This document shows positions 3,110-11,924 of a stretch of 43,520 bases of DNA, piece after piece (the first letter of the stretch is position 1; each line of letters begins with the position of its first letter). The stretch is taken from positions 1 to 43,520 of the IMG/VR virus record IMGVR_UViG_3300037483_000044. One strand, written 5' to 3'. A program made the translations under genes and the position numbers. The notes below the pieces were generated by a model. That model was not told the origin of the DNA, ran no database searches, and saw only the letters and a list, made by a program, of their open reading frames with translations. This DNA is from a virus (Duplodnaviria; Caudoviricetes).

Positions 3110-3412
3110 ATGATGTGCGATCGCTGCGACAAGGCTAAGACTGAGTACAACAAAGCCGTGGCTGAGTACGTCAAGGCTAAGACTGAGTACAACAAGACTG
3201 ATGCTGAGTACGACAAAGCCGTGTCTAGGTACGTCAAGGCTGATGCTGAGTACGACAAGGCTAAGACTGAGTACGACAAAGCCGTGGCTGAATACTATAA
3301 GCTTGATGCTGAGTACAACAAGGCTGATGCTGAGTACAACAAGGCTGATGCTGAATACGTCAAAGCCGTGGCTGAGTACGACAAAGCCGTGTCTAGGTGC
3401 TCGATTACGTAG
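3110..3412 (+). CDS. Heptad-repeat coiled-coil protein with N-terminal CxxC
   Basis: GAGGAG RBS; about 12 tandem 21-nt units encode EY(N/D/V)KA(VA/KT/DA). Confidence 0.8.
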   Translation: MMCDRCDKAKTEYNKAVAEYVKAKTEYNKTDAEYDKAVSRYVKADAEYDKAKTEYDKAVAEYYKLDAEYNKADAEYNKADAEYVKAVAEYDKAVSRCSIT

Positions 3413-3419
3413 ATGGTAA

Positions 3420-3492
3420 GCGCCGTTAGCTCAGATGGTAGAGCAGCTGACTTTTAATCAGCGGGTCATAGGTTCGAGCCCTATACGGCGCA
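3420..3492 (+). tRNA. tRNA-Lys(UUU)
   Basis: Acceptor GCGCCGT/ACGGCGC, anticodon arm GCTGA-CTTTTAA-TCAGC, GGTTCGAGCC T-arm; no encoded CCA. Confidence 0.95.
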
Positions 3493-3521
3493 CGAATTCA
3501 AAGTCTAGTCAAGGAGTCAAA

Positions 3522-3674
3522 ATGTGTGACAAGTGTCTTGAAACTGGCGCAGAGCTGAACGACACTACGTCTCGATTCGAGACTGCTAGGATCGCGTTCA
3601 ACGAGGCTGTTAATCAACAGCATGAGGCTAGGCTTGCATATGATGCAGCTAAGGCCAAGTGCCAAGACAAGTAA
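3522..3674 (+). CDS. Small coiled-coil protein MCDKC...KCQDK (50 aa)
   Basis: AAGGAG RBS before ATG 3522. The longer track ORF (3435) runs through the tRNA, so the start was moved. Confidence 0.75.
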   Translation: MCDKCLETGAELNDTTSRFETARIAFNEAVNQQHEARLAYDAAKAKCQDK

Positions 3675-4210
3675 CCGGAGAATAGCGAGCGTCCCGAAAT
3701 CCTGACCGGGCAGGTCTGTTATAAAGCGAGTGCCACCCAACTCGAAGAGATGTCAGCAGGCGGTTAAGAGCTCCCTGTATACGAAAGGCAAAACTCTTCG
3801 ACGAGTGTGACAGACGAGAACTTAAGCCCGGTGCGGCAGATAAGTTGACACTAGCCTTTAAAGATAGGTTGTTCCGTTAGTGGGAGCATTAATGTCGGTC
3901 TATCTAGTGTACGCCGTGCCTATTACTTATCTGCGTGAAGTCTCCCAACTATTATAGAGGTAGTTGCCAGTCGCCTCACGGGATGACAACTGGTATAAGT
4001 ATTACTCTTCGGTGTTGTTACACTGACAACTATCGGAGTTTTTGTAAGGGGCAGGCGATATGGAGTAGTGACCAGGATCGCCCTGTAGCGCAGATTAGGT
4101 ATCTAGCGGACAGACAAAAAGAGAGCCGGTTTATTAACTAGCCCGGTTGAAGTCTGGTGAAAAGCCAGAGCCTCTCATAACAAAAAGCCCCCATTAATAA
4201 CCCGATGTCT
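3675..4210 (+). ncRNA. Large structured non-coding RNA, ROOL-like candidate
   Basis: Nested stems 3705-3711/3826-3832, 3714-3722/3807-3815, 3742-3749/3794-3801, 3836-3845/3925-3934 and 3848-3854/3904-3910, plus TCTGG-TGAAAAG-CCAGA. It lies between two tRNAs with no RBS-led ORF. The family call rests on remembered motifs only. Confidence 0.7.
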
Positions 4211-4223
4211 AACAAGGAGTCCA

Positions 4224-4319
4224 ATGATGGGTGATGTCTTTAGTATTAAAACTTCAAGCGTATTTCGTGTAATGAAATCTGCGGACTATGGAGAGCAGTT
4301 TGTGAGGGTTCAAATCTAA
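4224..4319 (+). CDS. Tiny hypothetical protein (31 aa)
   Basis: AAGGAGTCCA-ATG leader, almost identical to the leader of the next gene. Confidence 0.45.
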   Translation: MMGDVFSIKTSSVFRVMKSADYGEQFVRVQI

Positions 4320-4345
4320 ATCGTAATAGCTAAAAAGGAGTCCAA

Positions 4346-4699
4346 ATGTCTGTTGCAGCCATGGACGATATGTGGGATGCTCTACAGTGGGTATACGATA
4401 ATAATAAAATTCCTGCGTACTGTAGGAAGTCTTGGAAAAACATGCTGGACTATAAGGACCAAAAAACTACAAATCGAGCATATGAAGATGCCGAATTCAT
4501 TTACAACTCAGAATTCATTTACGACTCAGATGACACTAACGTCGTTCTTATCTACCGTGCTATTAGAGCTGCTTATATTGCCTTCCATTACTTGTTAGAC
4601 GATACACTGAATCTTAATGCTACTGTCACAGCCCTTGTAAAGGAGCGTACTATGTATGCAATAACTCAATGTGTTAAATTGGGCTACCCAAAATCCTAG
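4346..4699 (+). CDS. Hypothetical protein
   Basis: AAGGAG RBS; 117-aa ORF. Confidence 0.75.
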   Translation: MSVAAMDDMWDALQWVYDNNKIPAYCRKSWKNMLDYKDQKTTNRAYEDAEFIYNSEFIYDSDDTNVVLIYRAIRAAYIAFHYLLDDTLNLNATVTALVKERTMYAITQCVKLGYPKS

Positions 4700-4708
4700 T
4701 AATGCTAT

Positions 4709-4781
4709 TCCCTCATAGCTCAATTGGCAGAGTGAGCGGCTGTTAACCGCTAAGTTGTAGGTTCGAGTCCTACTGAGGGAG
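4709..4781 (+). tRNA. tRNA-Asn(GUU)
   Basis: Acceptor TCCCTCA/TGAGGGA, anticodon arm AGCGG-CTGTTAA-CCGCT, GGTTCGAGTCC T-arm, discriminator G. Confidence 0.95.
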
Positions 4782-4950
4782 CATGTGTGAATCCACTTGT
4801 CCTTACCATCACTATGTGAAGAAATCTAATGGAGAATGGAGATGTATCCATTGTGGAAAAAGGACTATGGGATAGGATAAGGGATTGGTATAGACCAGAG
4901 GAACTTAATCCTGAATTAGATTATGGGGATGGTTACGATGAGGATGAATA

Positions 4951-11747: not shown

Positions 11748-11821
11748 GTCGGTATATCCCAATTGGCAGAGGAACTCGACTTAAAATCGAGCCAGTGTGG
11801 GTTCGAGTCCCACTACCGACA
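11748..11821 (+). tRNA. tRNA-Leu(UAA), short variable arm
   Basis: Acceptor GTCGGTA/TACCGAC, anticodon arm CTCGA-CTTAAAA-TCGAG, GGTTCGAGTCC T-arm. Confidence 0.93.
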
Positions 11822-11822
11822 C

Positions 11823-11896
11823 GGGCTATTAGCTCAGCAGGTTAGAGCACTTGTCTTATAAACAAGCGGTCTCGGGTTCAAGTCCCGAATAGCCCA
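11823..11896 (+). tRNA. tRNA-Ile(UAU)
   Basis: Acceptor GGGCTAT/ATAGCCC (Ile-type), anticodon arm CTTGT-CTTATAA-ACAAG, GGTTCAAGTCC T-arm. Confidence 0.93.
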
Positions 11897-11924
11897 CTAA
11901 TATTTAAGATAGGAAGGAGGGTGA

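Follow-up and report, generated by a model that had tools for sequence, protein, structure and literature searches.

We propose that the structured RNA lying at about positions 3701-4192 on the + strand of the window (the whole 43,520-nt stretch of DNA analysed here, which is an entire 43.5-kb virus record) is a two-part cassette of ~490 nt, in which an enlarged pistol-type ribozyme (3701-3936) would be followed by a separate folded phage RNA (3936-4192). With a probability of roughly 0.65 we expect that an early transcript spans this cassette, that the ribozyme cuts it at 3935/3936, and that a folded 257-nt RNA is released with a 5'-OH. The initial annotation had seen here a highly structured + strand RNA, and had offered two identities for it, a divergent ROOL or a new large RNA class. 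The RNA is genuine, with a conserved structure and covariation among its homologues, and it is uncatalogued, Rfam having no match on 3600-4350 at E<=10; the strand was also rightly chosen (fold z -2.71 and 0/100 shuffles as good for the + strand, against z -1.86 and 2/100 for the - strand). Its length has to be reduced from the ~530 nt first given to about 490 nt by the bounds above, and the idea of a new large class holds as far as the RNA is uncatalogued and structured, but overlooks the pistol-type core in the 5' half and a cleavage site predicted midway along it. The features are as follows, in window coordinates.

3420..3493, + strand: tRNA-Lys(UUU), context.
3522..3674, + strand: 50-codon ORF with an AAGGAG ribosome-binding site, the upstream neighbour, without a PHROG match.
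3701..3936, + strand: whole putative enlarged pistol-type ribozyme domain, from descriptor match and covariation.
3702..3713, + strand: pistol P1, 3702-3704 with 3711-3713, G5 being 3704; 6-nt loop 3705-3710.
3714..3820, + strand: inserted domain in place of the short P1-P2 linker, made up of a helix (3714-3720 with 3809-3815), a conserved single strand (3721-3734), a variable hairpin (3735-3808) and a conserved GAGAA (3816-3820).
3821..3835, + strand: catalytic strand, with N28 at 3821 (C), U29 at 3822, A31 at 3824, A32 at 3825 and G33 at 3826.
3827-3832, + strand: pseudoknot strand, pairing with loop 3705-3710, then G40-C41-G42 at 3833-3835.
3836..3934, + strand: pistol P3, a long variable arm.
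3935..3936, + strand: predicted cleavage site, G53 (3935)/U54 (3936); G55 (3937) pairs with 3821.
3936..4192, + strand: predicted released structured RNA, 257 nt, without an Rfam family.
3940..3993, + strand: its 5' module, with stem 3940-3946/3980-3987 and inner stem 3957-3960/3974-3977.
3967-3971 with 3989-3993, + strand: possible pseudoknot, weakly supported.
4008..4037, + strand: hairpin; its loop 4021-4025 complements loop 4066-4070, giving a kissing pair.
4048..4191, + strand: 3' domain, closing stem 4048-4052 with 4187-4191.
4054-4082 and 4083-4113: two hairpins inside the 3' domain, the first bearing kissing loop 4066-4070.
4121-4125 with 4172-4176, + strand: stem closing a sub-domain inside the 3' domain.
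4224..4699, + strand: two small RBS-led ORFs of 31 and 117 codons (4224-4319, 4346-4699), context.
4709..4782, + strand: tRNA-Asn(GUU), which is next to the predicted released RNA in 5/5 phages.

Homologues were sought through capsid relatives, which led to 80 viral loci; the records behind 48 of these were searched by blastn, and real matches were obtained in G001, G003, G007 and G012 (4/22 near-complete records), a fifth match being merely 17 nt long. A model of the 5' half found it in 3/48 records and one of the 3' half in 4/48. The 5' model had 0 hits in 36 further records (32 fragments, Shocker, Jasmine, DS1 and one uncultured podovirus) and 0 in 151 genomes from the phylum of a Nocardioides genome, and neither half was found in G005 (capsid 61%, 90% complete). 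Two of the 38 loci returned by a metagenome pattern scan were real, namely L010, with the 5' half in two copies, and L032. The comparisons below therefore draw on five phages (the window, G001, G003, G007 and G012) and two metagenome contigs (L010 and L032), with seven copies of the 5' module (window, G007, G003, G012, two in L010, one in L032). Contigs of sequencing run X1, possibly the run from which the window comes, contain the window plus a second homologue whose letters are identical to G007; no RNA run was listed as holding the sequence. Elsewhere the searches added little: blastn of the region gave just two chance 33-nt matches against phages and 0 against plasmids, and the L010 and L032 RNAs had 0 matches against phages; one pattern scan gave a single chance match inside a coding region, another returned three known phages and nothing further, two (one of them in genome_contigs) were empty, and two more gave 13 matches (3 known, 10 chance) and 10 matches (3 known, 7 chance). 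The helicase as a single query found 0 relatives, and an Rfam scan of six homologue loci at E<=1 reported tRNAs only.

As described in the available text of PMC4604425, PMC6154101, PMC6795133 and PMC7027511, pistol ribozymes have three stems, a 6-bp pseudoknot from the P1 loop to the P2-P3 junction, U29, a purine at 32, G33, G40, C41 and G42, and a two-base GU junction at which the RNA is cut; bases are numbered here as in env25, following PMC6154101, PMC6795133 and PMC7027511. The window RNA has in common with the class (RF02679; Harris et al. 2015, PMC4604425, in the parts available) P1 with its 6-nt loop, the 6-bp pseudoknot, P3, the 28-55 pair, U29, purine 32, G33, G40-C41-G42, the GU junction and the phage context. 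These features are retained among the homologues: the 3 bp of P1 are paired in 7/7 copies, with one U-A to C-G change, and so are the 6 bp of the pseudoknot, 3/6 of which are doubly changed, while G5 (3704), U29, A31, A32, G33, G40, C41 and G42 are invariant in 7/7. All six complete copies have P3 with a base stem of 6-12 bp and a GU immediately 3' of it, and the 28-55 pair beside the cut is C-G in five copies and A-U in L032. Taken over P1, the pseudoknot and the insert helix, 126/126 cells are paired and 7/18 pairs are doubly changed, with 0/500 shuffles as high; since the covariation rests on 7 related sequences for the 5' module and 6 for the 3' RNA, shuffle counts here and below are not probabilities.

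The pistol features compared here were taken from papers; G5 and A31 are further positions regarded as conserved in pistols, and G5 was seen in 14/14 control descriptor matches. A descriptor assembled from pistol features, with gap limits set after the window was seen, so that its controls show specificity and not a blind discovery rate, matches 6/7 copies of the 5' module (window, G007, G003, G012, the second L010 copy and L032) and 14/20 loci called Pistol by Rfam, these loci being taken from a pattern scan. It has one site in the whole window, gave 0 matches in 3.2 Mb (265 other, partly redundant loci) and matched 0/5000 shuffles. The copy that fails it, the first of L010, has a one-base junction. 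The two L010 copies are ribozyme-like and stand in tandem at 913-1255; the first has a 4-bp P2, and its P3 holds a hairpin resembling a tRNA T-arm (about 1022-1038).

The helices picked out in the initial annotation fare differently once homologues are aligned; its 19 quoted words were all (19/19) found where they had been placed. ACCGGGC/GCCCGGT, GTCTGTT/GACAGAC, GCAGATAAGT/ACTTATCTGC and GTTGTTA/TGACAAC are retained through compensatory changes; the first of these keeps its pairing, but instead of a plain nested stem is best read as a pseudoknot that engages the loop of a hairpin of 3 bp. TCGAAGAG/CTCTTCGA and ACACTAG/CTAGTGT stand as window-specific helices within length-variable arms. In both homologues aligning there an A-C interrupts the helix CAACTA/TAGTTG, and TTTTTGT/ACAAAAA is not kept in homologues, the real closing stem of the 3' domain being GGGGC 4048-4052 with GCCCC 4187-4191.

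We regard the 5' half as a pistol-type core, a variant that would work like a pistol and for which cleavage is predicted, and not as a canonical member, because it departs from the class in two defining features and escapes the Rfam model. The P1-P2 linker is 60-106 nt long here as compared to 8-11 nt in 14 canonical pistol loci, and P2 has one contiguous Watson-Crick pair in 5/6 copies as compared to 3-6 bp in 14 canonical pistols; beyond the single pair those five copies have purine mismatches, then one to three more pairs, and G012 has a P2 of 4 bp. P1 is 3-4 bp here and 4-8 in canonical loci, P3 spans 38-101 nt in the six complete copies and 18-33 in canonical pistols, and the pseudoknot letters differ. 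The AAA strand at 3723-3725 (AAA in 6/7 copies, AA in 7/7) lies ~7 nt farther from P1 than in canonical pistols, where AAA directly follows P1. Rfam RF02679 (Pistol, 34.5 bits) has no match on the region at E<=10, whereas the same model gave 22 matches in 20 control loci. A control search for pistols in 151 Bacillota genomes found none. Because this variant is invisible to Rfam, catalogues may understate both the variety of pistols and their reach, which here likely extends to phages of actinobacteria; the setting named in the available text of the pistol papers is Firmicutes. Neither a pistol with a large linker insert nor a pistol releasing a phage RNA was found in the largely open-access literature searched; non-cleaving motifs described by Weinberg in 2015 and 2017 may bear on the novelty of the variant.

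The inserted domain is itself conserved. Its helix is paired in 7/7 copies with 2 doubly changed pairs, and the domain has 24 invariant positions around a variable hairpin that ranges from 28 to 74 nt across six copies. These departures invite the view that the fold has lost catalysis and persists as the 5' structural domain of one ~490-nt modular scaffold or cage of the ROOL/GOLLD kind. A P2 reduced to one pair in 5/6 copies, and a large conserved insert where pistols carry a short linker, would fit this view, and the tRNA surroundings, modular halves and kissing loops recall GOLLD and ROOL as the available text of PMC12286853 describes them. The catalytic bases and the GU step are nevertheless all invariant, which a dead fold would not need, and the halves are swapped exactly at the predicted cut; we consider a loss of catalysis unlikely.

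For an active ribozyme, the inserted domain might prop up or gate the weak P2, and the conserved insert beside it is a candidate for natural regulation of cleavage. One could go further and speculate that this is a natural allosteric pistol, the insert sensing an ion, a metabolite or a protein of phage or host and so completing a P2 that is otherwise too weak, with the kissing-loop RNA released on signal only. We hold this to be rather unlikely; if true, phages would gain their first regulated self-cleaving RNA, in parallel to glmS, and the freed RNA would found a small class of its own, with assembly by way of the kissing loop as a possibility. Two 7-mers found in the ribozyme (3809-3815 and 3826-3832) recur in the 3' RNA at window positions 4109-4115 and 4141-4147, and these second copies could offer alternative pairing or be the relic of an old duplication.

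The 3' RNA has covariation of its own, as has the 5' module. Over 29 pairs it is 86.9% paired, with 13/29 doubly changed and 0/500 shuffles as high, in a count made on six rows, one of which is G012's poorly aligned second copy. In hairpin 4054-4082, 6/9 pairs are doubly changed, and in the closing stem and in stem 4121-4125/4172-4176 the letters change and pairing is kept in homologues; sub-domain 4121-4176 is reduced to a hairpin in G001 and missing in G007. The module at 3940-3993, with three sequences and 2 doubly changed pairs, is not significant (55/500 shuffles as high). The kissing loops 4021-4025 and 4066-4070 are complementary in 5/5 phages. In G003 four of the five bases are changed in each loop and five of the five pairs are kept, with three double changes; this compensation belongs to a single lineage, and the chance of a 5-bp match is about 0.017. 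A second, diverged copy of the 3' domain is present in G012 (L124 1180-1392, - strand), where it separates the first copy from tRNA-Asn; its letters are new, its topology is unchanged.

Pistol chemistry, according to PMC4604425, PMC7027511 and PMC6795133, proceeds by attack of the 2'-O within the GU step, G40 serving as the base and Mg2+ being bound at G33, and leaves a 2',3'-cyclic phosphate and a 5'-OH. By analogy, a self-cut between G3935 and U3936 would set the 5' end of the 257-nt RNA. Its 3' end might be made in G007, G003 and G012 by host RNase P cutting before the directly following tRNA-Asn, and in the window by trimming to the closing stem. We picture the freed RNA as a stable trans-acting scaffold held by its kissing loop; the most likely role we can tentatively suggest for it, possible but well short of probable, is to bind proteins as a scaffold or decoy, perhaps as an oligomer if the loops kiss between molecules.

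The relation of the cassette to tRNA genes varies among the phages. The tRNA-Asn comes directly after the RNA in G007, G003 and G012, about 4-25 nt past the closing stem, and the stretch between the predicted cut and this tRNA measures 186 nt in G007, 264 in G003 and 494 in G012, where the second 3'-domain copy is included. In the window tRNA-Asn lies 773 nt past the predicted cut and 517 nt past the RNA, with two intervening ORFs (those of 4224..4699) that are missing at that place in three relatives. The location between tRNAs given by the initial annotation is thus right in that the RNA is near tRNA-Lys and tRNA-Asn, but it is not directly between them, ORF 3522-3674 and the ORFs 4224-4319 and 4346-4699 intervening. 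In G001 the 3' RNA is found without the ribozyme, and tRNA-Asn stands upstream in the ribozyme's place; in L010 and L032, conversely, the ribozyme heads a different RNA, common to both contigs. These swaps fit a device that would make a 5' end.

Alternatively, an active cut might merely punctuate the early transcript, the 3' structure then being a cis-acting stabilising leader for tRNA-Asn or for the small ORFs. The short step from closing stem to tRNA-Asn in G007, G003 and G012 (about 4-25 nt, as above) would suit such a leader, and ribozymes of bacteria have been proposed to process polycistronic transcripts (PMC6765202). Against this, the structure comes after the tRNA in G001 and 517 nt before it in the window, with helices and kissing loop still kept, and G012 has its second, diverged copy of the 3' domain, so that we find the leader distinctly unlikely. 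Theta ribozymes (HDV-like, PMC10879173, in the parts available) resemble the window ribozyme in being self-cleaving RNAs beside phage tRNAs and in being proposed to define an RNA end; they are, however, another class and occur at tRNA 3' trailers, whereas here the predicted cut lies 186-773 nt upstream of tRNA-Asn and would free another RNA.

The biological roles of most genomic self-cleaving ribozymes are unknown, according to the available text of PMC6765202. If the release of a folded RNA is the correct reading, the cassette would give the pistol class a concrete and directly testable job, with one base step and one product, and the natural swaps, of a tRNA for the ribozyme and of another RNA behind it, point to a function in making ends. 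Some of the "large ornate" phage RNAs might likewise prove to be chains of ribozyme and passenger. Neither the predicted freed RNA of 257 nt nor the different RNA that follows the ribozyme in L010 and L032 is catalogued. This second passenger RNA, of ~290-310 nt (L010 1352-1640; L032 1625-1937, - strand), is without an Rfam match, and in 15/56 of its predicted pairs both bases are changed from one contig to the other. After it, L032 has a 426-codon ORF (340-1620, - strand) whose product, judged by eye, resembles family 2 glycosyltransferases. In G001, further folded elements flank tRNA-Asn (L123 about 1002-1140 and 1213-1280), and words of these elements recur in the variable insert hairpin of G007.

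The proposal of a divergent ROOL draws on size and on the phage and tRNA context, and 2/6 of the words quoted for it match true ROOL at 0-1 mismatch in generic motifs, with two more at 1-2. The ROOL model (RF03087, 99.1 bits) is nevertheless silent on the region at E<=10, and its control, the ROOL of Ligilactobacillus salivarius, scores 130.4 bits; nhmmer gave 0 matches against true ROOL, and shared 7- and 8-mers are at background level. The topology differs as well, as the ROOL consensus pairs its 5' with its 3' end, whereas the halves of the window RNA each close locally and occur apart. Membership in the ROOL family is very improbable on this evidence. The window RNA is like ROOL (RF03087) and GOLLD (RF02032), as described in the available text of PMC12286853 and PMC5737381, in being a large structured phage RNA near tRNAs with kissing loops and variable arms, and its 5' and 3' parts are independent, as in GOLLD. 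It differs in its internal ribozyme core. ROOL and GOLLD are oligomeric (PMC12286853), as the freed RNA may perhaps be. The GOLLD model RF02032, which covers a conserved 3' region, had 0/5 records at E<=10 and nothing by cmscan; a control for true GOLLD gave 0/151 Bacillota genomes.

Other identities were considered and set aside. One candidate was the raiA motif. A comparison with 107 pattern-picked raiA-like sequences from 120 loci, 3 of them checked against Rfam, gave 24/118 overlapping 10-mers at p<=0.05; the summed 10-mer test lay within shuffles (14 and 5 of 60), ROOL scored as high, and the profile search was null. RF03072 itself had no match on the region, with 2/2 positive controls over cut-off, and against the motif as described in the available parts of PMC12968392 and PMC10861870 the window RNA has a few common words of 9-10 nt, but in the wrong order. 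Group II intron domain 5/6 (RF00029) was found in 0/5 records at E<=10, controls being over cut-off in 5/14; the AG of the supposed AGC triad helix sits in a stem that covaries, and G007 and G001 lack this part. A likeness to T-box stem I, seen by eye, was dropped, as the distal loop is not conserved.

It might also be asked whether the region is coding, with incidental folding, as a GTG ORF at 3935-4141 is open for 68 codons in the window and for 56 in G003. It runs for just 6 codons in G007 and 5 in G012, however, has no PHROG match, and has no RBS, as the initial annotation had remarked of this RNA in general; its GTG is the ribozyme's GU step plus G55, and the covariation is strong. A coding region is scarcely credible here.

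The window carries genes for a helicase, exonuclease, primase-helicase, DNA polymerase, portal, terminase and capsid, and the RNA region sits amid small + strand genes downstream of the helicase. The cassette would be transcribed together with this early small-gene operon; no + strand terminator was found between the predicted cut and tRNA-Asn, and a promoter scan gave no signal above chance. The nearest cultured relatives are Arthrobacter phages Jasmine and Adat, Microbacterium phage Shocker and Cellulosimicrobium phage DS1, with identity to the phages of these three genera of 42-44% for the capsid and 36-44% for the DNA polymerase (11/11 matches at E<=1e-60). Because the nearest cultured relatives by capsid and polymerase are phages of Actinomycetota, the host of the window phage is likely actinobacterial, which agrees with the "actinophage" of the initial annotation.

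Several minor observations were made elsewhere in the window. The 100-codon ORF at 3110-3412 is built of a 7-residue repeat (KA.AEY.) and starts with CDRC, which the CDKC start of ORF 3522-3674 resembles. At 11748-11897, tRNA-Leu(UAA) and tRNA-Ile(UAU) stand back to back with a spacer of 0. The 10-mer CYCTGTAGCG has 18 sites in the window, from 2174 to 42618 and both within and between genes, one of them at 4081-4090, as compared to 0.12 expected and a maximum of 1 over 100 shuffles. It is common, too, in G001, G003, G005, G007 and G012 and absent in Shocker and two more distant relatives, and is perhaps a clade-wide dispersed site for a DNA-binding protein.
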